Source: a virus (lineage: Duplodnaviria; Heunggongvirae; Uroviricota; Caudoviricetes). From it: DNA of 33,415 nt. The notes under the pieces were generated by a model. It was given only the letters and a program-made list of their open reading frames with translations, made no database searches and was not told the DNA's origin. The translations under genes were made by a program, and so were the position numbers. The stretch lies in the IMG/VR virus record IMGVR_UViG_2563366922_000004, one strand, 5' to 3'. Positions 3,173-17,745 of the stretch are shown one piece after another; the stretch's first letter is position 1, and the number at the start of each line of letters is the position of its first letter.

Positions 3173-4472
3173 TCTCCCGCATATTGCCAGTATGGCCTTT
3201 AATGAGCCGCTGATGCTTGAACCCGCCTATGCGCGGGTTTTCTTTTGTGCGCTTGCAGGCCAGCTTGGGATCAGCCGCCTGACGGATGCGGTATCCGGCG
3301 ACAGCCTGACTGCCGGAGAGGCACCCGCGGCGCTGGCGTTATCCGTTGATGATGACGGACCACGACAGGCCCGCAGTTATCAGGTCATGAACGGCATCGC
3401 CGTGCTGCCGGTGTCCGGCACGCTGGTCAGTCGGACGCGAGCGCTGCAGCCGTATTCGGGGATGACCGGTTACAACGGCATTATCGCCCGTCTGCAACAG
3501 GCTGCCAGCGACCCGATGGTGGACGGCATTCTGCTCGATATGGATACGCCAGGCGGGATGGTGGCAGGGGCATTTGACTGCGCTGACATCATCGCCCGTG
3601 TGCGTGACATAAAGCCGGTATGGGCGCTGGCCAACGACATGAACTGCAGTGCAGGTCAGTTGCTTGCCAGTGCCGCCTCCCGGCGTCTGGTCACGCAGAC
3701 CGCCCGGACAGGCTCCATCGGCGTCATGATGGCTCACAGTAATTACGGTGCTGCGCTGGAGAAACAGGGTGTGGAAATCACGCTGATTTACAGCGGCAGC
3801 CATAAGGTGGATGGCAACCCCTACAGCCATCTTCCGGATGACGTCCGGGAGACACTGCAGTCCCGGATGGACGCAACCCGCCGGATGTTTGCACAGAAGG
3901 TGTCGGCATATACCGGCCTGTCCGTGCAGGCTGTGCTGGATACCGAGGCTGCAGTGTACAGCGGTCAGGAGGCCATTGATGCCGGACTGGCTGATGAACT
4001 TGTTAACAGTACCGATGCGATCACCGTCATGCGTGATGCACTGGATGCACGTAAATCCCGTCTCTCAGGAGGGCGAATGACCAAAGAGACTCAATCAACA
4101 ACTGTTTCAGCCACTGCTTCGCAGGCTGACGTTACTGAGGTGGTGCAAGCGACGGAGGGCGAGAACGCCAGCGCGGCGCAGCCGGACGTGAACGCGCAGA
4201 TCACCGCAGCGGTTGCGGCAGAAAACAGCCGCATTATGGGGATCCTCAACTGTGAGGAGGCTCACGGACGCGAAGAACAGGCACGCGTGCTGGCAGAAAC
4301 CCCCGGTATGACCGTGAAAACGGCCCGCCGCATTCTGGCCGCAGCACCACAGAGTGCACAGGCGCGCAGTGACACTGCGCTGGATCGTCTGATGCAGGGG
4401 GCACCGGCACCGCTGGCTGCAGGTAACCCGGCATCTGATGCCGTTAACGATTTGCTGAACACACCAGTGTAA
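3153..4472 (+). CDS. C: Head maturation protease / minor capsid protein C (439 aa), GTG start
   Basis: ORF track opens at 3039, but lambda C begins MTAELRNLPHIASMAFNEPLMLEP, which corresponds to the in-frame GTG at 3153; length from 3153 is 439 aa as in lambda; overlaps end of B. Confidence 0.88.
3867..4472 (+). CDS. Nu3: Scaffolding protein Nu3, in-frame internal start within the 3' part of C (201 aa)
   Basis: In lambda, Nu3 is the last 606 nt of C in the same frame; there is an in-frame ATG exactly 606 nt before the C stop (MDATRRMFAQKV...). Confidence 0.6.
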   Translation: MDATRRMFAQKVSAYTGLSVQAVLDTEAAVYSGQEAIDAGLADELVNSTDAITVMRDALDARKSRLSGGRMTKETQSTTVSATASQADVTEVVQATEGENASAAQPDVNAQITAAVAAENSRIMGILNCEEAHGREEQARVLAETPGMTVKTARRILAAAPQSAQARSDTALDRLMQGAPAPLAAGNPASDAVNDLLNTPV

Positions 4473-4481
4473 GGGATGTTT

Positions 4482-4814
4482 ATGACGAGCAAAGAAACCT
4501 TTACCCATTACCAGCCGCAGGGCAACAGTGACCCGGCTCATACCGCAACCGCGCCCGGCGGATTGAGTGCGAAAGCGCCTGCAATGACCCCGCTGATGCT
4601 GGACACCTCCAGCCGTAAGCTGGTTGCGTGGGATGGCACCACCGACGGTGCTGCCGTTGGCATTCTTGCGGTTGCTGCTGACCAGACCAGCACCACGCTG
4701 ACGTTCTACAAGTCCGGCACGTTCCGTTATGAGGATGTGCTCTGGCCGGAGGCTGCCAGCGACGAGACGAAAAAACGGACCGCGTTTGCCGGAACGGCAA
4801 TCAGCATCGTTTAA
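4482..4814 (+). CDS. D: Head decoration protein D (110 aa)
   Basis: [27 protein letters not shown]...AISIV matches lambda gpD; ORF track start at 4476 includes 2 extra codons, ATG at 4482 matches lambda. Confidence 0.92.
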
Positions 4815-4834
4815 CTTTACCCTTCATCACTAAA

Positions 4835-4856
4835 GGCCGCCTGTGCGGCTTTTTTT
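4835..4856 (+). terminator. Short GC hairpin (GGCCGC-ctgt-GCGGC) followed by T7 run between D and E
   Basis: Sequence aaaGGCCGCctgtGCGGCttttttt read directly; lies in the D-E intergenic spacer. Confidence 0.4.
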
Positions 4857-4869
4857 ACGGGATTTTTTT

Positions 4870-5145
4870 ATGTCGATGTACACAACCGCCCAACTGCTGG
4901 CGGCAAATGAGCAGAAATTTAAGTTTGATCCGCTGTTTCTGCGTCTCTTTTTCCGTGAGAGCTATCCCTTCACCACGGAGAAAGTCTATCTCTCACAAAT
5001 TCCGGGACTGGTAAACATGGCGCTGTACGTTTCGCCGATTGTTTCCGGTGAGGTTATCCGTTCCCGTGGCGGCTCCACCTCTGAATTTACGCCGGGATAT
5101 GTCAAACCCAAGCACTTAGCATGGCTTTCTGAGGCTTTCGTGTAG
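4870..5145 (+). pseudogene. E: Major capsid protein E, 5' fragment: 82 native codons then 9 insert-derived codons (LAWLSEAFV) and stop
   Basis: MSMYTTAQLLAANEQKFKFDPLFLRLFFRESYPFTTEKVYLSQIPGLVNMALYVSPIVSGEVIRSRGGSTSEFTPGYVKPKH matches lambda E residues 1-82; similarity ends abruptly at 5115/5116. Confidence 0.9.
5107..5115 (+). repeat. Left att core copy CCCAAGCAC (attL side)
   Basis: Matches the right copy CCGAAGCAT at 16152-16160 in 7 of 9 positions; both lie exactly where lambda-E homology ends and resumes. Confidence 0.6.
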
Positions 5146-5227
5146 TTGCTGGTTTTTACACTTAATCTTTTGATAATAAAGAATAAGTTTATCTGGCGCT
5201 TTCACTGAATTTTCCTCGTTATCTGTG

Positions 5228-5263
5228 TGTTGCAATCATCTCTGTATTGCAGCTTGTATTGCT
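5228..5263 (+). promoter_or_regulatory. Cluster of TGT(A/T)TTGCA direct repeats upstream of int; candidate integrase arm-type sites
   Basis: tgttgcaa (5228-5235), tgtattgca (5243-5251), tgtattgct (5255-5263); the same TGTATTGCA motif recurs twice near the other end at 16043-16063. Confidence 0.4.
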
Positions 5264-5277
5264 TTTTGGGGCTAAAA

Positions 5278-6513
5278 ATGGCTGGCGAGAACAAACTGAG
5301 CGACAAAGCGCTTAAAGGATATCTGGGGAAACCCAGAGAAAAGCAGATCACCATTGCTGATGGAAAGGGGCTTTCTATTCGTGTGAGTACTAAAGGGGCT
5401 GTGAGCTTTGTTTTCTTCTACAGGTTAGCAGGTGGCCGGGCTGCTCCGGTCTGGCTAACGTTGGGTAAATATCCTGATATGTCACTCAAACAGGCAAGGG
5501 AAAAGCGCGACGAGTGCCGTGGTTGGTTGGCTGACAAACGTGATCCGCGTATCCAGATTAAGATTCAGGCTGAAGAACGCTTAAAGCCGGTCACAGTGGA
5601 GGATGCACTAAATTACTGGTATGAAAATTACTGTAAGGTGCGTCGTAAAACTCATGCTGTAACGCTTGGCAGATTTCGAAAGCATATCTTTCCCTATATC
5701 GGTCATTTGCCCGTAAATGACACTCACCTATATGAATGGCTGGACTGTTTTGACCGAATTAAACGTAATGCACCAGTTATGGCGGCGTATGTTTTTTCTG
5801 ACACTAAATTAGCTCTTCGTTTTTGTCGGGTACGCCAGTACGCGACGTGTGATGCTTTAAAGGATTTGCGCATGAGTGATGTGGGGCAGATTGCAGGTAA
5901 GCGGGATCGGGTTCTGGATGAAGCCGAACTCGGCCAGCTCTGGAAGGCAATTTTTGTCGAGCCTGATTTAAAACTAATGTCTGAATACACGCGAAAAATG
6001 TTTGTGCTTTGTACAGTATTTGGATGTCGAATGAGTGAAGCCCGATTATCAGAATGGAGCGAATGGGATCTCGAAAGTTGGGTTTGGACTGTACCAAAAG
6101 ATCACTCAAAAACTGGTGTTGAAATCGTCAGACCAGTACCTGAAATTCTACGACAGTGGGTAACGGATGTTCACGAAGAGACAAAACATACTGGTTATGT
6201 GCTGGGAAGTCTGCGAATTAGAGAAAGCGTAAGCAAGATTGGGGGGAAAATCGGTAAACGTTTGGGCCATGAAAAACAATGGTCACTACACGACCTTAGA
6301 AGAACGCTATCTACTCATCTAAGTGATCTCGGTGTTGAATTTTATGTAGTAGAACAACTGTTAGGCCATGCGCTACCTGGCGTGGCAGGTGTTTACAATC
6401 GGAGTAAGTTTATGGCTAAAAAACTGGATGCTCTGGAACTCTGGACTACATATCTCAATAGCATCGCAGGTGCTGATTCAAAAGTGACAATCCTCAAACA
6501 AAAGGCTGGTTAA
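5278..6513 (+). CDS. int: Tyrosine recombinase / integrase (P4-like), probable ATG start at 5278
   Basis: N-terminal arm-binding-like region (GKYPDMSLKQAREKRDE) and C-terminal catalytic motifs (HDLRRT, LLGH, GVYNRS); ORF track opens at GTG 5227 but the homologous N-terminus begins MAGENKLSDKAL. Confidence 0.88.
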   Translation: MAGENKLSDKALKGYLGKPREKQITIADGKGLSIRVSTKGAVSFVFFYRLAGGRAAPVWLTLGKYPDMSLKQAREKRDECRGWLADKRDPRIQIKIQAEERLKPVTVEDALNYWYENYCKVRRKTHAVTLGRFRKHIFPYIGHLPVNDTHLYEWLDCFDRIKRNAPVMAAYVFSDTKLALRFCRVRQYATCDALKDLRMSDVGQIAGKRDRVLDEAELGQLWKAIFVEPDLKLMSEYTRKMFVLCTVFGCRMSEARLSEWSEWDLESWVWTVPKDHSKTGVEIVRPVPEILRQWVTDVHEETKHTGYVLGSLRIRESVSKIGGKIGKRLGHEKQWSLHDLRRTLSTHLSDLGVEFYVVEQLLGHALPGVAGVYNRSKFMAKKLDALELWTTYLNSIAGADSKVTILKQKAG

Positions 6514-6514
6514 C

Positions 6515-6742
6515 ATGAAAAAAATGGCAATTGTTGATAAAAAGGGTCTGGAGTACATTCCTAACATTGATCGTATGATCCGTGAGAAAGAATGTCGGGA
6601 GCTAACCACTCTTGCGAACAGCACACGCTGGAAGCTGGAGAAGGAAGGAAAATTTCCTAAGCGGATCAAGATTGGCGCTACTGCGGTAGCTTACCGTCTC
6701 TCCGAAGTTCAGGCATGGATTAGGGGGGAATGGCGGACATAA
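6515..6742 (+). CDS. alpA: AlpA-family HTH transcriptional regulator / excisionase-like protein (75 aa)
   Basis: Small protein directly after int with an AlpA-like helix-turn-helix region (ATAVAYRLSEVQAWIRGE); typical int-alpA pair of P4-like elements and PICIs. Confidence 0.8.
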   Translation: MKKMAIVDKKGLEYIPNIDRMIREKECRELTTLANSTRWKLEKEGKFPKRIKIGATAVAYRLSEVQAWIRGEWRT

Positions 6743-6778
6743 ATGTTGTAGTAAATTGTTATATAAAAGGGTGTAAGC

Positions 6779-7654
6779 ATGGCTACTCGAAAAAAAAATA
6801 GCGTAGAAATGAAAACTGTTTGTGAACTAATCATATCAAGAGATGATATGAAAGATAAAATTCAAGACAGAATTCAAAAAGGATTATTACTCCTACAGAA
6901 AAGCATAAATAACAATAGTGACTTGGAGCTGTTTAATGCTGATTACAGGAAATGGAGTGATTTTAATGCTGAGCTACTGAAGCGTAGTTTCACAAATGAT
7001 GATTTCAAAGAAGAATATGAAGGTGGGGCATTTGGTGTTATTTCATTGTACGAGACTTCCTTGGGAGAAAAAATCAGTGAGGCTACGCGTAAACTCCAGA
7101 GTAAGATAAGAAAACTAGAGTCGATTATGGAGCGACTGGAGTTAATTCCTATATCTTCCAAAGTTGTTGAAGAAAATATTGAAGTACCTCAGAGTTCAGC
7201 GGTAAAAACCAAAAAGGTATTCATTGTTCATGGAAGAGATGAAATATCAAAAACCAACTTAGAAGTGTTTTTAAGAGAAATTGGCTTAGAACCTATTGTT
7301 CTCCATAGGCAAGCTGATGTAGGTCAGACAGTGATTGAGAAATTTGAAGCAAATAGTGATGTTGGTTTCGCATTCATTCTTCTCACACCTGATGAGATCG
7401 CTTATTTATTGCCGCAAGACTCTTTACCTGATAATGAAAGAGAAAAGGAGTTACGTGCACGACCAAATGTAATGTTTGAATTTGGTTATTTCGTAGGGAA
7501 ATTAGGTCGTTCTAAGGTTTGTTGTCTATACACAGGTGATGTAGTGATTCCAAGTGATTTGAATGGTCTTATTTATAAAAAATTCAATTCTTCTATTGAA
7601 GAAGTAGCATATAGCATTATTAAAGACTTGCGAGCTACTGGTTACGCAGTTTAG
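6779..7654 (+). CDS. Two-domain protein: N-terminal coiled-coil-like region plus C-terminal TIR-like domain; candidate defence effector
   Basis: C-terminal half has the motifs I recall for bacterial TIR-like (COG4271-type) proteins: VFIVHGRD...LLTPDE...RARPNVMFEFGYFVGKLGR; the gene and its flanks are strongly AT-rich compared with neighbours. Confidence 0.55.
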   Translation: MATRKKNSVEMKTVCELIISRDDMKDKIQDRIQKGLLLLQKSINNNSDLELFNADYRKWSDFNAELLKRSFTNDDFKEEYEGGAFGVISLYETSLGEKISEATRKLQSKIRKLESIMERLELIPISSKVVEENIEVPQSSAVKTKKVFIVHGRDEISKTNLEVFLREIGLEPIVLHRQADVGQTVIEKFEANSDVGFAFILLTPDEIAYLLPQDSLPDNEREKELRARPNVMFEFGYFVGKLGRSKVCCLYTGDVVIPSDLNGLIYKKFNSSIEEVAYSIIKDLRATGYAV

Positions 7655-7683
7655 TAAATTCTTTGAACTAAAAATCTGCATAG

Positions 7684-7716
7684 ATATAGAGCCATTCGAG
7701 ATAAATGGCTCTATAT
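7684..7716. terminator. Perfect 13 bp inverted repeat with 7 nt loop between convergent genes; likely bidirectional terminator
   Basis: ATATAGAGCCATT-cgagata-AATGGCTCTATAT read directly; sits between the stop of 6779-7654 (+) and the stop of 7730-7909 (-). Confidence 0.5.
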
Positions 7717-7729
7717 GAAATATTATCTG

Positions 7730-7909
7730 TTAAATTTTGACTTCATATCCGCGTTGCTGTAGTTCTTTGCGAATAATCCTTTTAATCCAGGCTGCTAAAG
7801 ATTCGTCTCCATCTACTTGCTGTGCTTGCTCCATCAACTCCCTCAACTCAGGATCTAACCGAAACTGGAACGGAGGATTACCACGTCTTTGATTTTTGTG
7901 TGTTGACAC
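7730..7909 (-). CDS. Small Arc/MetJ-type ribbon-helix-helix DNA-binding protein (59 aa, GTG start); not in the ORF track
   Basis: Manual minus-strand translation gives (V)STHKNQRRGNPPFQFRLDPELRELMEQAQQVDGDESLAAWIKRIIRKELQQRGYEVKI, with a beta-strand then two helices as in Arc; start codon overlaps palindromes. Confidence 0.5.
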   Translation of the reverse strand: MSTHKNQRRGNPPFQFRLDPELRELMEQAQQVDGDESLAAWIKRIIRKELQQRGYEVKI

Positions 7910-7957
7910 GTCAATTACACCCGATGTAATGTGTTAATGTGTGATGACACATTACAT
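7903..7957. promoter_or_regulatory. Divergent control region: palindrome TTGAC-AC-GTCAA (7903-7914) and 10 bp inverted repeat ATGTAATGTG / CACATTACAT (7924-7933 / 7948-7957); candidate operator and promoter
   Basis: Inverted repeats read directly; TTGACA at 7903-7908 is a plausible -35 for the rightward operon; located between the RHH gene (-) and the 8040 operon (+). Confidence 0.35.
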
Positions 7958-8039
7958 ACGTGTTTAGGAAAATGCAACGCCTCGACGTGCGGGAACACCA
8001 TCGAGGCGTCTAACCAACCCGTTAAATGAGGTAACGATT

Positions 8040-8405
8040 ATGGCTGGAACACAGCATACCCAAACTCACCCTAAATTTATATACACCTTTCTGGCACTAC
8101 ACCACGACCGCATGGCAGATGGAGCAACTACGGTACATGTAGCCGCTGACACGCTGGTTGATGCCCGCAAGATGGTTAAGGAGATGGGCTATACTGCGGC
8201 TTTCTGGAAAGGGCGTGAAGAAAACACGCTGTTTATTCAGAAATGCGAAAACAATTTCATCTGGCGTTTTATCGCCCTGAGCACCGCACAACCGCGCGTG
8301 ATTCACATCGTGGCCACCAGCGAACAGGAAGCACGCCAGCAATCCCCGGCTGGCTGCGTGATGGTATTCGCCGCCCGTATTCGTCAGGGGGTATGCCATG
8401 CCTGA
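8040..8405 (+). CDS. Hypothetical protein; C-terminal part resembles Icd-like (cell-division-inhibitor-like) small proteins of P4-like elements
   Basis: C-terminal segment FIWRFIALSTAQPRVIHIVATSEQEARQQ...VFAARIRQG resembles the Icd-like pattern from memory; GAGG Shine-Dalgarno about 9 nt upstream of ATG 8040; first gene of a + operon. Confidence 0.45.
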   Translation: MAGTQHTQTHPKFIYTFLALHHDRMADGATTVHVAADTLVDARKMVKEMGYTAAFWKGREENTLFIQKCENNFIWRFIALSTAQPRVIHIVATSEQEARQQSPAGCVMVFAARIRQGVCHA

Positions 8406-8718
8406 TATGTCAAATTACCAGTACCTGATTAATCCGCATTTTAACTGTGAGCATGATATTGCTAAAAAGGTTTATTCCGCTGCGGATGGGGCTACTGACA
8501 ATATATCAATGGCTGTTGCGTCAATTGGTAGCCTGATGTGGCATGCGTCAGAAAATGAGGACTATGACGAAAAGGCTATGCGCATTGATATGGGTAATAT
8601 CGGTTTGTTACTGGCAATGCTTGGGCAGTTTGATATTTCGTTACGGTGCACCATTGAAAATGCCACAGATGCATTAAATGCCATAAAGAAAGCGAATACT
8701 GATTCAAATCGGGGATAA
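8398..8718 (+). CDS. Hypothetical protein (106 aa)
   Basis: ORF with ATGCCTGA start/stop overlap with the upstream gene (translational coupling); no recognisable family. Confidence 0.45.
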   Translation: MPDMSNYQYLINPHFNCEHDIAKKVYSAADGATDNISMAVASIGSLMWHASENEDYDEKAMRIDMGNIGLLLAMLGQFDISLRCTIENATDALNAIKKANTDSNRG

Positions 8719-8724
8719 ATAATC

Positions 8725-9024
8725 ATGAGAACATATTTATCTGGCTTGACTGCCAGCGGTTATGCACACCCCAAAATTATCCCCGGCGCTATTTATCTGG
8801 ATAAGAACGGTAACAGAGTAACGGTAAAAGAACTGATGTTTGACCGTGTGTATTTTATTCGTGATGGCTATTCATTTCATAGTTCGCTGAACGTGGAGAT
8901 CTTTATTAGCAGATTCAGGCGGGAAATCCCGCTTTCCAGAAATAACCATGTGTCATGTATGGATGTTGATAAAAAACTACAGGAACTGAAAAACATGATT
9001 GCCGCGTGGAGAGAGCAGAAATGA
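8725..9024 (+). CDS. Hypothetical protein (99 aa)
   Basis: ORF in operon context immediately upstream of the primase gene; no recognisable family. Confidence 0.45.
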   Translation: MRTYLSGLTASGYAHPKIIPGAIYLDKNGNRVTVKELMFDRVYFIRDGYSFHSSLNVEIFISRFRREIPLSRNNHVSCMDVDKKLQELKNMIAAWREQK

Positions 9025-10838
9025 AAAAAGCGCCAAATTTAAAACACCAGCCGCGTGACAAAATGACGGAAGTCATCATTTTTGCGGGTAGTGATGCGTG
9101 GGCACATGCGAAACAGTGGCAGGAACAGGACGGGCGACTGGCTGGCGATAACGTGCCACCTGTCTGGCTTGGAGAGCAACAACTTGCCGAACTGGACAAC
9201 CTGCAAATCGTACCGGACGGACGCTATCGCGTGCGTCTCTATCAGGCGGGGTTATTGCGTCCGGGGCTTGTTAATACCATCGGGCAGAAACTGGCAGTGG
9301 CAGGTGTCAGGGATGCTGATTATTACCCTGAAGGAATGCACAGCCAGAAACGGGAGAACTGGCGCGAATATCTGGAACGTGAACGGGCAGAGCAGGCGGA
9401 AAAGAAAAAGGTAGTTGAACTGCCTGTAAAGAAAAAAGAGCGGGTAAAAGACGATAACGCTTCATCACTGGCGCTTAACCAGATGGGAGCAAGTCAACGC
9501 GGCGAAGTTCTCCTGGCACATTATGGCGGTGAACTGGCGATTCATGCTGACTCTGACACTGTTCACCATTACAACGGCGTTGTATGGGAGCCAGTACAGG
9601 ATAAAGAATTACAGCGAGCTATGGCACAGATTTTCATTGATGCGGAGATCAGCTATTCGCAGAACGCCATTAAATCGGCGGTCGATACCATGAAGTTAAG
9701 TTTGCCTGTAATGGGGAATACAGCCCGTAACCTGATTGGATTCAGTAACGGGGTATTTGATACCAGAACAGGTAATTTTCGGGAGCATAACAAAAACGAC
9801 TGGTTGTTAATTGCCAGTGAATTACCTTTCAGCCCACCAGCAGAGGGGGAAACGCTGGCAACACATGCGCCGAATTTCTGGAAGTGGTTACGCCGTTCGG
9901 TGGCTGAGAATGACCGCAAGGCGGATCGCGTACTGGCTGCATTATTCATGGTGCTGGCGAACCGGTACGACTGGCAGTTATTCATTGAGGTAACAGGTCC
10001 AGGGGGAAGTGGTAAAAGCGTGATGGCGGAGATTTGCACCATGCTGGCGGGTAAGGCCAACACAGTATCGGCAAGCATGAAGGCGCTGGAAGATGCAAGG
10101 GAACGCGCGTTAGTGGTTGGCTTTTCGCTGATTATCATGCCGGATATGACCCGCTACGCTGGTGATGGGGCAGGGATTAAGGCTATTACAGGCGGTGACA
10201 AGGTGGCAATTGACCCGAAACACAAAGCCCCCTACTCAACGCGTATTCCGGCAGTAGTGCTGGCGGTTAACAATAACGCCATGTCATTCAGTGACCGCAG
10301 CGGGGGGATCTCACGTCGTCGGGTGATATTCAATTTTTCGGAAGTTGTACCGGAGAACGAACGCGATCCAATGCTGGCGGAAAAAATAGAAGGTGAGTTG
10401 GCGGTAGTGATTCGCCATCTGCTTACACGGTTTGCTGACCAGGACGAAGCCAGACGCCTGTTATATGAGCAGCAGAAATCTGAAGAAGCACTGGCGATAA
10501 AGCGAGAGGGGGATTCGCTGGTGGACTTCTGCGGCTATCTCATGGCGTCGGTAATGTGTGATGGCCTGTTAGTGGGTAATGCTGAAATTGTGCCATTCAG
10601 CCCACGCAGGTATCTCTATCATGCCTATCTGGCTTATATGAGGGCACATGGGTTTGGTAAACCTGTAACACTGACGCGCTTCGGTAAAGATATGCCGGGG
10701 GCAATGGCGGAATATGGCAGGGAGTATATGAAACGGAAAACGAAGCACGGTTTGCGTTCAAACGTGACACTGACGGAGGAATCAGAAGACTGGATGCCAT
10801 CATGTGTATCGGTCACTAATGACGATAGCAAAAATTAA
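9006..10838 (+). CDS. Replication protein: primase / SF3-type helicase (P4-family), start 9006 or 9021
   Basis: Walker A motif VTGPGGSGKS and Walker B-like SLIIMPD; 610 aa; immediately followed by an iteron array. Confidence 0.82.
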   Translation: MERAEMKKAPNLKHQPRDKMTEVIIFAGSDAWAHAKQWQEQDGRLAGDNVPPVWLGEQQLAELDNLQIVPDGRYRVRLYQAGLLRPGLVNTIGQKLAVAGVRDADYYPEGMHSQKRENWREYLERERAEQAEKKKVVELPVKKKERVKDDNASSLALNQMGASQRGEVLLAHYGGELAIHADSDTVHHYNGVVWEPVQDKELQRAMAQIFIDAEISYSQNAIKSAVDTMKLSLPVMGNTARNLIGFSNGVFDTRTGNFREHNKNDWLLIASELPFSPPAEGETLATHAPNFWKWLRRSVAENDRKADRVLAALFMVLANRYDWQLFIEVTGPGGSGKSVMAEICTMLAGKANTVSASMKALEDARERALVVGFSLIIMPDMTRYAGDGAGIKAITGGDKVAIDPKHKAPYSTRIPAVVLAVNNNAMSFSDRSGGISRRRVIFNFSEVVPENERDPMLAEKIEGELAVVIRHLLTRFADQDEARRLLYEQQKSEEALAIKREGDSLVDFCGYLMASVMCDGLLVGNAEIVPFSPRRYLYHAYLAYMRAHGFGKPVTLTRFGKDMPGAMAEYGREYMKRKTKHGLRSNVTLTEESEDWMPSCVSVTNDDSKN

Positions 10839-10850
10839 ACTTATGGAATA

Positions 10851-11075
10851 ACTGTTCACCACTGTTCACCCTGTCATAAATATCTTTTATATCAGTATAT
10901 TATAGGGTGAACAGTTATTTATGAACTGTTCACCAAACTATTCACTGTTCACCTTTTTGATTGTTTATTGAGCTTCAAGGGTGAACAGTGGTGAACAGTT
11001 GGTGAATAGTTTTTGTGAAACTGTTCACCCCTTAACATTATGAATTAAAAGAGAAAATATCAAAAGGTGAACAGG
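10851..11075. repeat. Iteron-type replication origin: about 10 copies of CTGTTCACC / GGTGAACAG in both orientations with an AT-rich centre
   Basis: Copies read directly at about 10852, 10862, 10906, 10926, 10945, 10979, 10990, 11000 (variant GGTGAATAG), 11021 and 11066; directly downstream of the primase gene. Confidence 0.7.
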
Positions 11076-11125
11076 TGAAGGGTTAAAACGCAAAAATTTT
11101 AATTTACTGCTGTGAGATAAAGCCT

Positions 11126-11371
11126 ATGACAGCGAAGCACACAAAAAAATCACAATCGCACGCCCTTGATTTGACGGAACACTGGTTAAGGGTGTCGATA
11201 AAAATCATTGACCGCAACGCCGGGGAAGGATATGCGAAAGCACATCCCGAACTGATTAGCGCATTCATGACAACGGCAGCTGCAAACTTTGCCACGCTGA
11301 CAGAACGGGAGATTGCCGAAGCGGAACAGGTGACAACCATCAACGTTAAAACCGGAGAGCAGACAGCATGA
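11126..11371 (+). CDS. Hypothetical protein (81 aa)
   Basis: ORF whose stop overlaps the start of the downstream SSB-like gene (ATGA); no recognisable family. Confidence 0.35.
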   Translation: MTAKHTKKSQSHALDLTEHWLRVSIKIIDRNAGEGYAKAHPELISAFMTTAAANFATLTEREIAEAEQVTTINVKTGEQTA

Positions 11372-11790
11372 CAGCACAGATAGCGGCTTACGGACGGCTG
11401 GTGGCTGACCCGCAGTTAAAGACCACCAGCAAGGGTACACAAATGACGATGGCGAGTATGGCGGTCCCCCTTCCGTGCAGCCAGGCAGATGACGGAACGG
11501 CGCCGATGTGGTTATCCGTCCTGGCGTTTGGCAGACAGGCCGACGCACTGGCAAAACACCACAAAGGCGAACTGGTGAGCGTGGCGGGTAACATGCAGGT
11601 AAGCCAGTGGACAGGCCAGAACGGCGAAACGCGGCAGGGCTGGCAGGTTATCGCAGACAGTGTAATCAGTGCCAGAACGGCGCGACCGGGCGGCAAAAAA
11701 GGTCAACAGGGCCAGGCTACTGACGCACTGAACAGGGCAAAACAACAGTCGGGGAATGATGATCCGTACGGCGATAATATACCGTTTTAA
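11368..11790 (+). CDS. ssb: Single-stranded DNA-binding protein (SSB-like, 140 aa)
   Basis: OB-fold-like N-terminal region and acidic C-terminal tail ending DDPYGDNIPF, resembling the E. coli SSB tail DFDDDIPF. Confidence 0.65.
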   Translation: MTAQIAAYGRLVADPQLKTTSKGTQMTMASMAVPLPCSQADDGTAPMWLSVLAFGRQADALAKHHKGELVSVAGNMQVSQWTGQNGETRQGWQVIADSVISARTARPGGKKGQQGQATDALNRAKQQSGNDDPYGDNIPF

Positions 11791-11807
11791 ATTCTGCAAA
11801 TAAAAAA

Positions 11808-11836
11808 ATGCCGGAAGAAAATAGATTTTCCGGCAT
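11808..11836. other. 9 bp stem hairpin (ATGCCGGAA...TTCCGGCAT) preceded by an A7 run; possible terminator after ssb
   Basis: Inverted repeat read directly. Confidence 0.3.
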
Positions 11837-12001
11837 GCTACATAAATCCCGACCAAAGGAAGTAAATACATTAACACGAATTATCAGCACTGAAGTTGTC
11901 ACGGCATATTTTATACAACATTGCACTTGGTTGCATGTATTCGCATAGCAGACATCGGTAATAGAATATATTCACAATTATTTGTAATGAATGTAAAGAG
12001 G

Positions 12002-13048
12002 ATGAGTATGGTTGATTTATATTCGCCTACACAGCTTGTGCAGGTGGCTAATGCTGAAGATGTGCAAAAAAAATTAAATGCGTTGTTTACCAGTTTGTTT
12101 TTCACTCGCTCGGTAATGTTTGAATCGAGAGACATTATTCTTGATACGATCGACGATCCAAATATCCCGATCGCGGCGTTTTGCTCTCCTATGGTGGGCA
12201 GTAAAGTTTCACGAGATGAGGGATACGAATCAAAAACAATTCGCCCTGGCTATATGAAACCGAAAAGCAGCATTGATCCAAATAAGTTAGCTGTGCGCCC
12301 TGCTGGTGTGTCACCTGAGCAATACAATGCTTTTGGGGCGCGTAATATTAAAGTTAAACAGGCGATTGTAAATCAGGCTAAAGCTATTCGTACACGTATT
12401 GAATGGCTTGCTGTTCAGGCAATCACAACGGGGAAAAATATCATTGAGGGCGATGGTATTGAACGTTATGAGCTGGACTGGAATATAAAACCACAAAATA
12501 TCATCACTCAGTCTGGCGGTACTGAGTGGTCAGGTAAGGATAAAGAAACTTTTGATCCAAATGATGATATTGAGAGCTACGCAGAATTTAGTGAGGGCGT
12601 CACTAATATCATCATTATGGGCGGTAATGTATGGAAGAAATACCGTTCATTCAGAGCGATAAAAGAGGCTCTGGATACCCGTCGTGGTTCTAATTCCGAA
12701 CTGGAAACGGCCCTTAAAGACCTTGGTGATTCGGTGAGTTTTAAAGGGTATATGGGCGATGTTGCGATTGTTGTTTACAGCGGGCGTTATACCGACGAGG
12801 ACGGAACTGAAAAACATTTCCTTGATCCTGATTTGATGGTGCTTGGCAATACGGCTCTTCAGGGGATTGTCGCTTATGGCGGTATTCAGGATCCGGAGCT
12901 AATCCGGATGGGGCTGACTAAAGCCGAACTTGCACCGAAAAACTATATTGTGCCTGGTGATCCGGCTATTGAATATGTGCAGACACATTCAGCACCACAG
13001 CCAATACCGGCCCGTATCAATCGTTTTGTTACCGTTCGCATTGGCTAA
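12002..13048 (+). CDS. Insert-encoded major capsid protein, diverged homolog of lambda gpE (about 349 aa)
   Basis: MSMVDLYSPTQLVQVANAEDV... aligns along its length with lambda E (shared motifs ITQSGGTEWS, LDTRRGSNSELETA, GDVAIVVYSG) but is clearly diverged; start chosen by analogy with lambda E (MSM...), ORF track opens at 11921. Confidence 0.85.
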   Translation: MSMVDLYSPTQLVQVANAEDVQKKLNALFTSLFFTRSVMFESRDIILDTIDDPNIPIAAFCSPMVGSKVSRDEGYESKTIRPGYMKPKSSIDPNKLAVRPAGVSPEQYNAFGARNIKVKQAIVNQAKAIRTRIEWLAVQAITTGKNIIEGDGIERYELDWNIKPQNIITQSGGTEWSGKDKETFDPNDDIESYAEFSEGVTNIIIMGGNVWKKYRSFRAIKEALDTRRGSNSELETALKDLGDSVSFKGYMGDVAIVVYSGRYTDEDGTEKHFLDPDLMVLGNTALQGIVAYGGIQDPELIRMGLTKAELAPKNYIVPGDPAIEYVQTHSAPQPIPARINRFVTVRIG

Positions 13049-13058
13049 GGGGGGAGCA

Positions 13059-13400
13059 ATGGCTACTCATTACACTGAACTCATGGCTGGCACTGAAGCA
13101 CTGGTTACTACGCTGGGGATATTTTCAGCTAATAAAGGGGTAATTCCTGCATTTACGCCACTGATGCAGGAAGATACAACAGGTGCACTGGTGGTATGGG
13201 ATGGTACGAGTGCAGGTAAAGCTGTTTATGTTTCCGCTGTACAACTCGATACAGCGAAAAAAACACAGGCTCAGGTCTATAAGACAGGTGTCTTAAATGT
13301 TGATGCTCTTAACTGGCCTGAGTCAGTAAAAGAACTGTCAGTAAAGGTTGCAGCGTTTGTTGGCTCAGGTATTTCTGTTCAGCCGCTGGCTCGTGTGTAA
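13059..13400 (+). CDS. Insert-encoded head decoration protein, diverged homolog of lambda gpD (113 aa)
   Basis: MATHYTELMAGTEALVTT...ALVVWDGTSAGKAV...YKTGVLN parallels lambda D ([13 protein letters not shown]...YKSGTF); start ATG 13059 preceded by GGGGAG. Confidence 0.78.
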   Translation: MATHYTELMAGTEALVTTLGIFSANKGVIPAFTPLMQEDTTGALVVWDGTSAGKAVYVSAVQLDTAKKTQAQVYKTGVLNVDALNWPESVKELSVKVAAFVGSGISVQPLARV

Positions 13401-13411
13401 AGGGGGATACA

Positions 13412-13795
13412 ATGCAGAATCATTACAATGACCTTAAGCCAATTGCCGAAATGATGTATCCGGATCCAGCAGTAGAGGAATTAAAGGCTATTGCTGACAA
13501 AATGCGTTTAAGCGAGCGTCTTGTTGATATGAATCAGGTGATGGAACTTACAACCCTGAGTCGTCGTACACTGCTAAACCTTGAAGCACGTGGAGAGTTC
13601 CCCGAACGCGTGCAGGTTACGGAAGGGCGTAAGGCCTGGTATTTAAGCGAAGTGATCGACTGGATAAACAATATTCCGCGCGCTTCTGAATATTGCCGCG
13701 TACCTGTCCCAAAAAAGCCAGATGCGGCGCTATGCCTCAAGATTGATCGTGTACGCCGCAATGCACGGGATGGTCGCTATAAGCTGATTGGTTGA
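13412..13795 (+). CDS. HTH protein (AlpA/MerR-like winged helix region), immediately upstream of cos; possible packaging accessory or late regulator
   Basis: Central segment MELTTLSRRTLLNLEARGEFPERVQVTEGRKAWYLSEVIDWINN resembles AlpA-type HTH; function not assignable from sequence. Confidence 0.45.
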   Translation: MQNHYNDLKPIAEMMYPDPAVEELKAIADKMRLSERLVDMNQVMELTTLSRRTLLNLEARGEFPERVQVTEGRKAWYLSEVIDWINNIPRASEYCRVPVPKKPDAALCLKIDRVRRNARDGRYKLIG

Positions 13796-13839
13796 TGAAA
13801 TTAGGGCCCGTTCTGGCTGGCGGGTCCTTTCCGGCGATC

Positions 13840-13890
13840 CGGCAGGTTACGGGGCGTCAGGCGCGCGGGTTTTCGCTATTTATGAGCATT
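13840..13890. promoter_or_regulatory. cos site of the insert (cosN-like): GTTACG-GGGCGTCAGGCG-CGCGGGTTTTCGCTATTTATGA
   Basis: Flanking bases match my recollection of lambda cosN (GTTACG / CGCGGGTTTTCGCTATTTATGA) while the 12 nt between them (13852-13863) differs from lambda's GGGCGGCGACCT; lies just upstream of a Nu1-like gene, as in lambda. Confidence 0.6.
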
Positions 13891-14011
13891 TTAAGGGGAC
13901 TGGTGGTGGTTTTGTTGTTCGCTATATCTGTATGAATAATAAGAGAAAAATACAATCAATACACCAACCTGAAACAGTAATTAAGTTGTGGTATCAATGA
14001 AATTACACCTG

Positions 14012-14539
14012 ATGAACAAAAAAAACATGGCAAAAAGTTGCCGTGTAAGCGCCACTGCGTTCGATAAGTGGGGAGTGATTCCCGTCGAGCGTAAGGGCCG
14101 TGAGGCGTTCTATGATGTTGCCAGTGTAATAGATAATCGGGTTAACAATGCAATCAGCCAGATTACAAACGAAACGGGCGATATTGATGACGATGAACTT
14201 TTACGCGTCAGGATCAGATTACTGACAGCACAGGCAGAGGCGCAGGAGCTTAAAAACGAGCGCGAACGCGGCGACGTTATTGATACAGAGTTTTGTATGT
14301 ATGTTCTTTCCAAACTGGCGAGTCAGATTTCATCTATCATGGACAGCCTGCCGCTTACCATGCAAAGGCGCTTCCCACAGATGACTCCGGCTATGCTGGA
14401 TGGACTTAAAAAGGAAGTGGCTAAAGCCTGTAATGCCAGTGCCGGCGTTGCTGACAACCTCCCACAGATACTGGCTGATTATCTGATGGAAAGTACAGGA
14501 AACGTACCGGATAAGTTGCAGCTGAATAAGGATAAGTAA
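14012..14539 (+). CDS. Terminase small subunit, Nu1-like, with divergent N-terminal DNA-binding region (start 14012, or 13997/14027)
   Basis: C-terminal two-thirds parallels lambda Nu1 (RLLTAQAEAQELKN...TEFCMYVLSKLASQISSIMDSLPLTMQRRFP vs lambda RLTRAQADAQELKN...TAFCTFVLSRIAGEIASILDGLPLSVQRRFP); N-terminus differs. Confidence 0.78.
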   Translation: MNKKNMAKSCRVSATAFDKWGVIPVERKGREAFYDVASVIDNRVNNAISQITNETGDIDDDELLRVRIRLLTAQAEAQELKNERERGDVIDTEFCMYVLSKLASQISSIMDSLPLTMQRRFPQMTPAMLDGLKKEVAKACNASAGVADNLPQILADYLMESTGNVPDKLQLNKDK

Positions 14540-14550
14540 CGTAGTACGCT

Positions 14551-14826
14551 ATGACTGAATCCGAACTACTGAAAGTAATCTGCCATGCTGGTGGAGTCAG
14601 CCACCAGCATGACGAACAGACCACGCAGCCGGGCAGTGTCACCGCTGAAAATTACGCTCGTGTGGTTGCTGAGGTTATGTGGCGTGACGGTATAGAACTG
14701 AACGGACAGGATTGCTTAGTCATCCGCACCAAAGTGCTGGCTATACTGGCAGCTAGGCGGAGGCAGGGACAACGCCAGAACGTTGCATCGTACCAGTGGA
14801 AGAAGCCTGACAGACTGCGGCGATAA
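14551..14826 (+). CDS. Hypothetical protein (91 aa)
   Basis: ORF directly downstream of the small terminase gene; no recognisable family. Confidence 0.4.
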   Translation: MTESELLKVICHAGGVSHQHDEQTTQPGSVTAENYARVVAEVMWRDGIELNGQDCLVIRTKVLAILAARRRQGQRQNVASYQWKKPDRLRR

Positions 14827-15122
14827 CTCTTTGATTTTCTCGACGGCCCCAAAATGGGCCTTACCATAGCCAGCTAATAAATGAGCAAGCCTCAAAAGTG
14901 AGGTTTGTGGCCGTTTGGCCTATTCATATGCTAACTCGTTGATATTCCTGACGACGCAAATTTACGCCTTGTGGCTGGTAGTCGAATTGCAAATTTGCAA
15001 CTCAACTATGAAACTACAGGTAGTTTGGGTAGTAAAAGCAACACACTGATTTTGGGGCTTCTTCGCGATACCTAATATTATGGTATCGGTGGAAGAGATA
15101 TCGTTTCTCATAGGTTAGCACC

Positions 15123-15142
15123 GAGGGCGGAGTTCCGCCCTC
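15123..15142. other. Perfect inverted repeat GAGGGCGGA-gt-TCCGCCCTC in the ORF-free spacer downstream of the HEPN gene
   Basis: Read directly; no clear U-run on either strand, so terminator function is uncertain. Confidence 0.3.
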
Positions 15143-15228
15143 ATCGAAAAATTGCTTACGAGTCGTCAAAATAAATTAATCGACTGAGTATAATGATTAA
15201 CTAATTGCTCGTGTTACTTCATTATACG

Positions 15229-15990
15229 TTATTTCCCATCTTTAAGGTTTAACCAAGTGTTAATTAAAAAAAGAGCCATTGAGCCTGATAAATTTACTGC
15301 AAGTTCGGCATGCCTTGGGGATGGCTTAATTGATGAGCTGTTCGTTCCATGTGCATCACCGAGTTTATTACGAAGAGTACCTAACCCATTTACAACTGCA
15401 GAACAACCGCCGAGAATTTGTTTGAAGATATTTTCAGTATGTTGGTCGGCAGATAGGTTAAGTTCTTTTGAAAGAGTTTTATAAAGCTCTGACATTTCAA
15501 TATTTTTATTATTATACTGAATGCCCATATCATCAAGAATGTGTTTGCAAACTGTTTCAAGAAGTGTTCTTGCGGAGGTTATCGCACCATCCGGATCTGT
15601 ATGGCGCCGTTCAAGTGCTTTTATCCAAACGGCGTGGACTCCATCCTCGTTAAACTTTCTTAATACATCAGATATGTCTTCATCCGCTGGAGCTTTATTT
15701 TTCCCTTCTAGATAGTCCAGCATCGGCTGAAATGCCTTATAAATCAAATCTCTCCGGGGGGCATACTTTTCAGTCTTTTTTATAAATCCCCAAAATTCTT
15801 TTAGTGAGCGATTAGTTCTCACAAACTCTGGTAATAGCTGATGTAAAGGAGGATTTTGTAAGAAATATGTTCTTAGAAGCAAATAATCATTATTAGCTTC
15901 ATCCTGGGCTCCTGTAGCTCTTGCAATTAGTATGTTTTGAAGCGCTACTGCGCGCTCTAGGTCATTTTGAAGGGTATCTATAATATTCAT
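15229..15990 (-). CDS. HEPN-domain protein of the Abi_C (abortive infection C-terminal) type, 253 aa
   Basis: Contains R-x6-H motif in LRNKLGDAHG preceded by ...ITSARTLLETVCKHILDDMGIQY...LYKTLSKELNL...ENIFKQILGGCSAVVNGLGT, matching my recollection of Abi_C; only minus-strand gene in the insert besides the RHH; AT-rich. Confidence 0.65.
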   Translation of the reverse strand: MNIIDTLQNDLERAVALQNILIARATGAQDEANNDYLLLRTYFLQNPPLHQLLPEFVRTNRSLKEFWGFIKKTEKYAPRRDLIYKAFQPMLDYLEGKNKAPADEDISDVLRKFNEDGVHAVWIKALERRHTDPDGAITSARTLLETVCKHILDDMGIQYNNKNIEMSELYKTLSKELNLSADQHTENIFKQILGGCSAVVNGLGTLRNKLGDAHGTNSSSIKPSPRHAELAVNLSGSMALFLINTWLNLKDGK

Positions 15991-16042
15991 AACAAATCTT
16001 TATTCACTTCATTTGTGGGTTGATAATTGAATGGTTTGTACA

Positions 16043-16063
16043 TTGATTTCTGTGTATTGCAGT
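16043..16063 (+). promoter_or_regulatory. Two TGTATTGCA direct repeats near the right end; candidate integrase arm-type sites
   Basis: Same 9-mer as at 5243-5263 near the left end; 12 bp spacing. Confidence 0.4.
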
Positions 16064-16151
16064 GTGTATTGCAACATAGCCATTCAGGTAGAGATTATGC
16101 TCTATTTTTCCTCTTATATCATTCACATACTTACACCATTGACTCATGTAG

Positions 16152-16160
16152 CCGAAGCAT
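16152..16160 (+). repeat. Right att core copy CCGAAGCAT (attR side; E codons P-K-H)
   Basis: Direct repeat partner of 5107-5115; immediately followed by E codon 83 (gaa gtg aat = EVN). Confidence 0.6.
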
Positions 16161-16940
16161 GAAGTGAATCCGCAGATGACCCTGCGTCGCCTGCCGGATG
16201 AAGAACCGCAGAATCTGGCGGACCCGGCTTACCGCCGCCGTCGCATCATCATGCAGAACATGCGTGACGAAGAGCTGGCCATTGCTCAGGTCGAAGAGAT
16301 GCAGGCAGTTTCTGCCGTGCTTAAGGGCAAATACACCATGACCGGTGAAGCCTTCGATCCGGTTGAGGTGGATATGGGCCGCAGTGAGGAGAATAACATC
16401 ACGCAGTCCGGCGGCACGGAGTGGAGCAAGCGTGACAAGTCCACGTATGACCCGACCGACGATATCGAAGCCTACGCGCTGAACGCCAGCGGTGTGGTGA
16501 ATATCATCGTGTTCGATCCGAAAGGCTGGGCGCTGTTCCGTTCCTTCAAAGCCGTCAAGGAGAAGCTGGATACCCGTCGTGGCTCTAATTCCGAGCTGGA
16601 GACAGCGGTGAAAGACCTGGGCAAAGCGGTGTCCTATAAGGGGATGTATGGCGATGTGGCCATCGTCGTGTATTCCGGACAGTACGTGGAAAACGGCGTC
16701 AAAAAGAACTTCCTGCCGGACAACACGATGGTGCTGGGGAACACTCAGGCACGCGGTCTGCGCACCTATGGCTGCATTCAGGATGCGGACGCACAGCGCG
16801 AAGGCATTAACGCCTCTGCCCGTTACCCGAAAAACTGGGTGACCACCGGCGATCCGGCGCGTGAGTTCACCATGATTCAGTCAGCACCGCTGATGCTGCT
16901 GGCTGACCCTGATGAGTTCGTGTCCGTACAACTGGCGTAA
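16161..16940 (+). pseudogene. E: Major capsid protein E, 3' fragment (codons 83-341, beginning EVNPQMTLRRLPD...)
   Basis: Translation matches lambda E from residue 83 to the C-terminal ...FVSVQLA; 82 + 259 = 341 codons, the full length of lambda E. Confidence 0.9.
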
Positions 16941-16981
16941 TCATGGCCCTTCGGGGCCATTGTTTCTCTGTGGAGGAGTCC

Positions 16982-17380
16982 ATGACGAAAGATGAACTGA
17001 TTGCCCGTCTCCGCTCGCTGGGTGAACAACTGAACCGTGATGTCAGCCTGACGGGGACGAAAGAAGAACTGGCGCTCCGTGTGGCAGAGCTGAAAGAGGA
17101 GCTTGATGACACGGATGAAACTGCCGGTCAGGACACCCCTCTCAGCCGGGAAAATGTGCTGACCGGACATGAAAATGAGGTGGGATCAGCGCAGCCGGAT
17201 ACCGTGATTCTGGATACGTCTGAACTGGTCACGGTCGTGGCACTGGTGAAGCTGCATACTGATGCACTTCACGCCACGCGGGATGAACCTGTGGCATTTG
17301 TGCTGCCGGGAACGGCGTTTCGTGTCTCTGCCGGTGTGGCAGCCGAAATGACAGAGCGCGGCCTGGCCAGAATGCAATAA
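16982..17380 (+). CDS. FI: DNA packaging protein FI (132 aa)
   Basis: MTKDELIARLRSLGEQLNRDVSLTGTKEELALRVAELKEELDD... matches lambda FI; ATG at 16982 preceded by GGAGGAG. Confidence 0.9.
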   Translation: MTKDELIARLRSLGEQLNRDVSLTGTKEELALRVAELKEELDDTDETAGQDTPLSRENVLTGHENEVGSAQPDTVILDTSELVTVVALVKLHTDALHATRDEPVAFVLPGTAFRVSAGVAAEMTERGLARMQ

Positions 17381-17391
17381 CGGGAGGCGCT

Positions 17392-17745
17392 GTGGCTGAT
17401 TTCGATAACCTGTTCGATGCTGCCATTGCCCGCGCCGATGAAACGATACGCGGGTACATGGGAACGTCAGCCACCATTACATCCGGTGAGCAGTCAGGTG
17501 CGGTGATACGTGGTGTTTTTGATGACCCTGAAAATATCAGCTATGCCGGACAGGGCGTGCGCGTTGAAGGCTCCAGCCCGTCCCTGTTTGTCCGGACTGA
17601 TGAGGTGCGGCAGCTGCGGCGTGGAGACACGCTGACCATCGGTGAGGAAAATTTCTGGGTAGATCGGGTTTCGCCGGATGATGGCGGAAGTTGTCATCTC
17701 TGGCTTGGACGGGGCGTACCGCCTGCCGTTAACCGTCGCCGCTGA
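17392..17745 (+). CDS. FII: Head-tail connector protein FII (117 aa)
   Basis: MADFDNLFDAAIARADETIRGYMGTSATITSG... matches lambda FII. Confidence 0.9.
   Translation: MADFDNLFDAAIARADETIRGYMGTSATITSGEQSGAVIRGVFDDPENISYAGQGVRVEGSSPSLFVRTDEVRQLRRGDTLTIGEENFWVDRVSPDDGGSCHLWLGRGVPPAVNRRR

Follow-up and report, generated by a model that had tools for sequence, protein, structure and literature searches.

The window examined here is a 33,415-nucleotide stretch of viral DNA (Duplodnaviria; Heunggongvirae; Uroviricota; Caudoviricetes) deposited as IMG/VR record IMGVR_UViG_2563366922_000004. It spans the late genes of a lambda-like prophage, all on the plus strand, from those for terminase A, W, portal B, protease C, decoration protein D and FI to the tail gene J, lom, stf and tfa; the window edges clip two of them, such that A lacks its 5′ end and tfa runs past the end. 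This prophage's gene for the major capsid protein, E, is split in two by an insert of 11,045 bp (5116–16160), which encodes an integrase, AlpA, a primase-helicase and a single-stranded DNA-binding protein (SSB), but open reading frame (ORF) and Pfam searches of 5105–16159 found no genes for portal, protease, large terminase subunit (TerL), connector, tail or lysis proteins. The insert therefore has the anatomy of a satellite rather than that of a phage. Very probably, the segment 5105–16159 belongs to the E:Phage_cap_E:80 group of helper-embedded phage-inducible chromosomal islands (HE-PICIs), as a close relative of Eco567.11capE (Tommasini, Mageeney and Williams, 2023; PMC10111431), and its tyrosine integrase joined a non-coding attP to a 10-bp core in the E gene of the lambda-like prophage, an integration that is reversible in sequence terms.

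Removal of the insert in silico yields an E gene of 1026 nt (341 codons) without a frameshift, which aligns with lambda E (J02459, 6135–7160) as a single colinear block, with 1022 of the 1026 bases identical (99.6%); three of the four mismatches fall within or beside the attachment core. The initial annotation, which had E homology running through codon 82 to position 5115 and resuming with codon 83 at 16161 for a total of 341 codons, was correct in its coordinates and codon arithmetic, and its prediction that removing the intervening sequence reconstitutes one ORF was borne out. In the occupied state, the E reading frame stops nine codons past the left junction, and the P arm upstream of attR shows no homology to E in the alignment; attP brings no replacement for the lost part, leaving E disrupted for as long as the site is occupied. 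The GC fraction is 0.55–0.60 in the flanks and 0.37–0.51 between 5116 and 16160. The int, alpA and primase genes all lie on the plus strand, co-oriented with the helper genes from A to J, including the interrupted E, and, apart from the split E itself, every satellite core gene and every helper late gene within the window is an intact ORF. A search for the same element at this site, as proposed in the initial annotation, was conducted with a query composed of 150 bp of E and 150 bp of the P′ arm, and found the attL junction in 173 of 5426 complete Escherichia coli genomes. Misassembly or a chance junction was ruled out by this recurrence and by the colinearity of the joined E with lambda E.

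Comparison of attL, attR and lambda attB with five further occupied E. coli sites delimits a shared block of 10 bp, A(A/G)CC(C/G)AAGCA, which covers codons 80–82 of E and in which the two variable positions are synonymous third-codon positions. The 9-bp imperfect direct repeat reported earlier at the junctions is real, but its extent had to be revised: the block is 10 bp long and offset by one base, and the last base of the 9-mer (C versus T) belongs to the arm sequence. The integrase gene starts 163 bp after the core, in keeping with the ~160 bp previously noted. Both arms carry a doubled TGTATTGC motif, the 20-nt form of which, TGTATTGCNNNNTGTATTGC, is present in exactly two co-oriented copies in the window (5243–5262 and 16053–16072), with 0.01 expected by chance. 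On the upstream side of the attP centre of HE-PICIs, the doubled motif tgTGTATTGCantgTGTATTGCa lies at 81 ± 2 bp, and on the downstream side at 132 ± 2 bp (Tommasini et al., 2023), distances that the spacing in the window fits. The supplement of the same study gives the identity blocks agccgaagca, aacccaagca and agcccaagca for E:Phage_cap_E:80, with the same P′ arm as in the window, and the right arm of the window is found 13 times in its attR alignment.

HE-PICIs were described in NAR Genomics and Bioinformatics, in a survey that comprised 491 elements at 14 late-gene sites, the commonest being E:Phage_cap_E:80, with 201 elements (Tommasini et al., 2023). The type element, Eco567.11capE, is an 11-kb island of E. 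coli NRG857c that disrupts the lambda-E-type capsid gene of the icd prophage and carries a capsid gene of its own; after treatment with mitomycin C, quantitative PCR and deep sequencing showed that the helper–satellite composite excises and replicates, whereupon the satellite leaves precisely, generating attB and attP, in 42–98% of the replicated composites (Tommasini et al., 2023). The integrase encoded in the window matches that of Eco567.11capE (NC_017634.1, 1199503–1200738) at 410 of 411 amino acids (99.8%); the identities of other proteins are 96% for AlpA, 98.6% for the capsid protein, 95.6% for the decoration protein and 87.8% for the primase, and the DNA is colinear at 94–99% identity except in the cargo slots and at the right end. 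All features of the E:Phage_cap_E:80 group that can be tested on sequence are found in the window, namely, integrase identity, site and core, orientation, doubled motif, lack of replacement sequence and a lambdoid helper. The initial annotation, according to which a satellite-like element is site-specifically integrated in E and blocks the helper capsid until precise excision, thus coincides with the published HE-PICI model. The annotation left open whether a satellite with an attachment site in its helper's capsid gene is undescribed; it is not, such elements having been published in 2023 together with induction experiments and with arms identical to those of the window already among the data. 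Our literature search on HE-PICIs found, beyond that article and its preprint, only four papers, each with a single mention.

The features of the insert and of the split gene are listed in Table 1. When the element was compared with 50,697 phage records by megablast, the sole match was a segment of the primase gene, 78% identical, which rules out that the element is a known phage genome. An Rfam scan of 4800–17000 detected no P4-type CI/seqA (C4, isrK) or other RNA at E ≤ 0.1, and no homologues of sid, psu, delta or epsilon were found in the element with Pfam or PHROG. The slot that follows alpA is variable, being occupied by the TIR gene in the window and by an Abi protein gene, DUF2971 plus SWIM genes or a hypothetical gene in sister elements; similarly, the right-end slot holds the AbiJ-like gene in the window and HEPN plus DUF262 genes in the type element. 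Both the TIR and the AbiJ-like gene are presumed to be defence cargo lodged in variable slots.

Table 1. Features of the interrupted capsid gene and of the embedded element (window coordinates).
Feature	Position	Strand	Details and evidence
Helper E, 5′ fragment	4870–5145	+	Codons 1–82 (to 5115), then nine foreign codons (LAWLSEAFV) and TAG at 5143–5145; identical genomes annotate it as a partial major capsid protein
attL core (identity block)	5105–5114	+	AACCCAAGCA; alignment of six occupied loci and supplement of PMC10111431
Doubled TGTATTGC motif, P′ arm	5241–5264	+	131.5 bp downstream of core centre
Tyrosine integrase, 411 aa	5278–6513	+	Pfam Arm-DNA-bind_3 and Phage_integrase
AlpA (excisionase/activator family)	6515–6742	+	Pfam Phage_AlpA, E = 6e-15
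Cargo: TIR-domain protein (CAP12/Pycsar-effector TIR)	6779–7654	+	PADLOC candidate PDC-S35, E = 7e-67
Small Arc-like/ribbon-helix-helix ORF, divergent from the next operon	7730–7909	-	PHROG 228 (Arc-like repressor), E = 1.6e-5, weak match
Icd-like/repressor-family gene	8040–8405	+	Domain and PHROG searches, annotation
Hypothetical gene	8398–8718	+	ORF
DUF4222 gene	8725–9024	+	Domain and PHROG searches, annotation
Primase-helicase	9021–10838	+	D5_N, DUF5906, Pox_D5
Hypothetical gene	11126–11371	+	ORF
SSB	11368–11790	+	Domain and PHROG searches
Satellite major capsid protein, lambda-E family, 346 aa	12008–13048	+	Pfam Phage_cap_E, E = 5.6e-41
Satellite head decoration protein, gpD family	13059–13400	+	Pfam HDPD
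Second AlpA-family regulator	13412–13795	+	Pfam Phage_AlpA; PHROG 2790
cos, lambda-like cosQ/cosN segment	~13821–13893	+	65/73 bases identical to helper cos in NZ_AP022222.1; multi-locus comparison
Nu1-family small terminase subunit, 180 aa	13997–14539	+	Pfam Phage_Nu1, E = 1e-24
Conserved hypothetical gene	14551–14826	+	PHROG 1561
Cargo: AbiJ-like/Abi_C abortive-infection family protein	15229–15990	-	Domain and defence searches
Doubled TGTATTGC motif, P arm	16051–16074	+	81.5 bp upstream of core centre
attR core	16150–16159	+	AGCCGAAGCA, identical to lambda attB
Helper E, 3′ fragment	16161–16940	+	Codons 83–341 plus stop; translation and alignment with lambda

The element occurs in many complete E. 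coli genomes: the right arm of the window is present in 45 of them, at least 80% of the element in 41 and essentially identical copies in 32, with lambda-type E sequence found in ~3200. The window is ~99.99% identical to a composite in NZ_AP022222.1 (about 3516890–3569917; loci L008 and L009), a full prophage at the argU/DLP12 locus that reaches from intD/argU as far as the tail fibres. As annotated, this helper measures ~42 kb and the composite ~53 kb, the latter being near, at or above the packaging limit of lambda. Helpers reside at two chromosomal sites, argU (window) and icd (NRG857c), and sister elements occupy the same position of E in prophages with different alleles of the portal, protease, decoration and tail genes. 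When the predicted attP sequence was scanned against metagenome contigs, one matched: in the human-gut contig ENA ORSG01002381 (L062, 8651 bp), positions 9541–16159 of the window (99.97% identical) are joined to 5105–7147 (99.90%) through AACCCAAGCA, with the junction at contig positions 6601–6634. This is the attP of the window variant, with the element lying outside E in circular, concatemeric or tandem form. The attP junction was also sought in IMG/VR as a sign of packaged or free satellite, and no match was found there.

The core alleles provide a further record of mobility. All four pairs of attL and attR cores occur among the fetched loci, that is, AACCC/AACCC, AGCCG/AGCCG, AACCC/AGCCG (window) and AGCCG/AACCC (locus L024). 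Locus L002, whose composite matches the window but for 4 bases over 22 kb, has AACCC at both cores. Empty E genes are known for either core allele (lambda and E. coli strain 181.1). These patterns suggest that, through repeated rounds of recombination, attP and the E alleles have swapped core sequence, and they fit recombination of attP and attB with non-identical cores, through repeated integration or excision and re-integration, as opposed to one inherited insertion. The unequal attL and attR cores fit both heteroduplex resolution across the core and a crossover on the right-hand side of the polymorphic positions. A single fixed ancestral insertion without empty relatives, one of the findings that the initial annotation named as fatal to its interpretation, is contradicted by the empty E genes of both alleles and by the core-allele pairs.

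The satellite capsid protein is 42% identical to helper E and the satellite decoration protein 40% identical to helper D, and nothing in the 50,697 phage records comes closer to them than lambda E (42%) and D (40%), respectively. Because no closer phage relative of the capsid protein exists in this set, the two genes appear to belong to an old satellite lineage, rather than to have been recently captured from the present helper. The Nu1-like small terminase subunit (TerS) of the satellite shares 36% identity with helper Nu1, its top match among the phage records being N15 gp1 (47%). The putative 12-nt cohesive end, GGGCGTCAGGCG, is located at 13852–13863 and differs from that of the helper, GGGCGGCGACCT, at 5 of 12 positions, and the satellite cosB, which lies downstream of cosN, is unrelated to the helper cosB. 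The possibility that GGGCGTCAGGCG is specific to satellites was rejected, the same allele being present in lambdoid prophages (L011, L045 and L061) with a Nu1 99.4% identical to that of lambda; hence, GGGCGTCAGGCG is a natural cosN variant and probably does not block cutting. The satellite cos allele was found in 52 IMG/VR contigs, mostly integrated HE-PICIs inside prophage predictions and a few lambdoid prophages, with no evidence of virions.

Two packaging modules can be distinguished among the HE-PICIs integrated in E: one, found in the window and 10 other loci, combines a private cosB with a full Nu1-like terS, and the other, found in the type element and five other loci, combines a helper-like cosB with a Nu1 remnant of 14 codons (window 13893–14539 compared with 11130–11473 of locus L007). 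In the published account, which mentions the terS-less state alone, 11capE has no terS, its 258-bp cos region is 90% identical to that of the helper, and packaging is presumed to proceed via helper cos machinery (Tommasini et al., 2023). We tentatively raise the possibility, for which we would not claim even odds, that the terS-bearing sublineage represents a partly capsid-autonomous satellite, midway between classical PICIs and PICIs that form their own capsids. Such a satellite, equipped with a private cosB, a Nu1-like TerS and its own major capsid and decoration proteins, would borrow from the helper no more than TerL, portal, scaffold/protease and tail and might build its own, probably smaller, shell from the E-like and D-like proteins, while its position in E would delay the shell of the helper.

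The following course of events can be proposed. Upon SOS induction, the composite would excise and replicate, after which the satellite would excise and restore E, as has been shown for the type element. Late transcription of the helper, antiterminated by Q, may run into int and alpA and thereby bring about excision of the satellite, and the requirement for excision would delay capsid synthesis by the helper. A scan of 4400–17400 for promoter and terminator consensus sequences returned fewer matches than shuffled sequence and is uninformative on late-operon read-through. The free 11-kb circle would then replicate with its own primase-helicase and SSB and be packaged from its own cos, with the Nu1-like TerS binding the private cosB and recruiting the helper large terminase gpA, thereby steering packaging towards the satellite. 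Its proteins resembling E and D might form or alter the shell, with the portal, protease/scaffold and tail supplied by the helper, and the TIR and AbiJ-like proteins might guard the lysogen, or the helper–satellite pair, against other phages.

Several considerations weigh against this picture. We infer late read-through, the redirection of packaging by TerS and any part that the E-like and D-like proteins play in the capsid. Excision of the window copy itself is predicted, precise excision having been shown for the element with the 99.8% identical integrase; with cohesive ends that differ at 5 of 12 positions, packaging by this helper is plausible; and the junction in ORSG01002381 could derive from a tandem array instead of a free circle. 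No plaque-forming particles were recovered, and neither virions nor transfer were shown for any HE-PICI (Tommasini et al., 2023). In NZ_AP022222.1, the excisionase-like ORF beside intD is annotated as partial, and the helper may not be fully competent. The latter observation, along with the truncated appearance of many HE-PICI helpers and the failure to recover virions (Tommasini et al., 2023), the two defence-type genes and the essentially identical copies in 32 genomes, could be taken to indicate that the prophage was inactivated once and that the element now passes on by vertical descent alone, a defence island (TIR, AbiJ) domesticated within a dead prophage. We regard such a fixed relic as quite unlikely, considering that the satellite core genes and the helper late genes in the window are all intact, that the attP junction of the exact variant exists in a metagenome, that near-identical composites carry reshuffled attL and attR core alleles, and that the element with the nearly identical integrase excises on induction.

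It is also conceivable that the insert is a capsid-module replacement cassette, the E-like and D-like genes of which stand in for the broken E, such that the composite forms virions without excision. The complete pair of capsid and decoration genes points the same way as the late operon, Tommasini et al. (2023) mention that a ‘backup copy’ role is possible, and the composite spans only ~53 kb by annotation, with ~42 kb for the helper. This length, however, is near, at or above the lambda packaging limit, as discussed in the same study, and the satellite capsid protein is only 42% identical to helper E, which makes its compatibility with the portal, scaffold and decoration proteins of the helper doubtful. 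Moreover, the composite contains two cos sites, so that terminase would cut inside it, and excision took place in 42–98% of the replicated composites of the type element. Thus, we give this explanation hardly any credence and favour reversible integration of an HE-PICI into its helper's capsid gene.

At this locus, the parasite of a virus has lodged in that virus's capsid gene and breaks it reversibly, a position that would let it control in cis when the helper assembles and would guarantee the presence of the helper. The window is a further instance of the family published in 2023 and not a discovery; it retains moderate value owing to the terS-bearing variant and the natural sighting of attP. 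New with respect to the published study are the metagenomic attP junction of the window variant, the unlike attL and attR cores of some occupied sites, the element's own terS and cosB, and a helper located at argU instead of icd. Present in many complete E. coli genomes, endowed with its own terS and seen in a natural attP form, this variant is a reasonable candidate for studies of packaging and transfer, of the capsid, decoration and terS genes and of any cost to the helper.

The closest counterpart of the window element is Eco567.11capE, with which it shares the 10-bp core at codons 80–82 of E, the P′ arm, the spacing of the doubled motif, the orientation and the gene order (int–alpA, variable slot, Icd-like/DUF4222/primase/SSB, major capsid protein, decoration protein, second AlpA and cos). 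The two differ in cargo (PDC-S35 TIR and AbiJ-like proteins in the window, against a hypothetical gene, YlcI and HEPN plus DUF262 in Eco567.11capE), in packaging (full Nu1-like terS with private cosB versus the 14-codon Nu1 remnant with helper-like cosB), in the chromosomal site of the helper (argU/DLP12 versus icd) and in the cores, unlike each other in the window and both AACCCAAGCA in 11capE. The chromosomal PICIs of Gram-negative bacteria, for example EcCICFT073 (Fillol-Salom et al., 2018; PMC6092414) as well as fis and hpt PICIs, are likewise ~11 kb long, carry int and alpA at one end and replicate with a primase-type system, and, as described by Tommasini et al. (2023), are packaged via cos by lambdoid helpers and have capsid-family genes in their late zone. 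However, they sit in chromosomal genes and act on the helper only in trans, whereas the window element is embedded in its helper, and their attP does not contain the doubled TGTATTGC motif (Tommasini et al., 2023). Set against the four zones of PICIs (integration, dynamic ‘Bro’, replication and late), the window element has the order int–alpA, variable slot, primase–SSB and major capsid protein–D–terS. Bro-N proteins and CI-type RNAs have been reported only for some elements (Tommasini et al., 2023). Pfam, PHROG and Rfam searches detected neither a Bro-N domain protein nor a C4/isrK RNA in the second zone of the window element.

Capsid-forming PICIs (cf-PICIs) carry a full set of head and packaging genes, including those for portal, protease, TerL and connectors. 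The window element resembles them in that it encodes a major capsid protein and a small terminase of its own, but, having only these two and the decoration protein, it falls short of the complete set. With P4, it shares an integrase of a related super-clade (Tommasini et al., 2023), an AlpA-family regulator, a D5-type primase-helicase and cos packaging by the terminase of a helper; it departs from P4-like satellites in that sid, psu, delta, epsilon and CI RNA were not detected, and in that its helper, within which it is embedded, is lambdoid rather than P2-like. Finally, the arrangement is akin to regulated gene integrity, or ‘active lysogeny’, exemplified by phi10403S in comK and skin in sigK, in which a gene is reversibly disrupted without replacement sequence and its ORF is restored by excision (discussed in Tommasini et al., 2023). 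In those systems, the cell benefits from the switch, whereas the gene broken in the window is that of another mobile element, the helper phage, and the beneficiary is the satellite.

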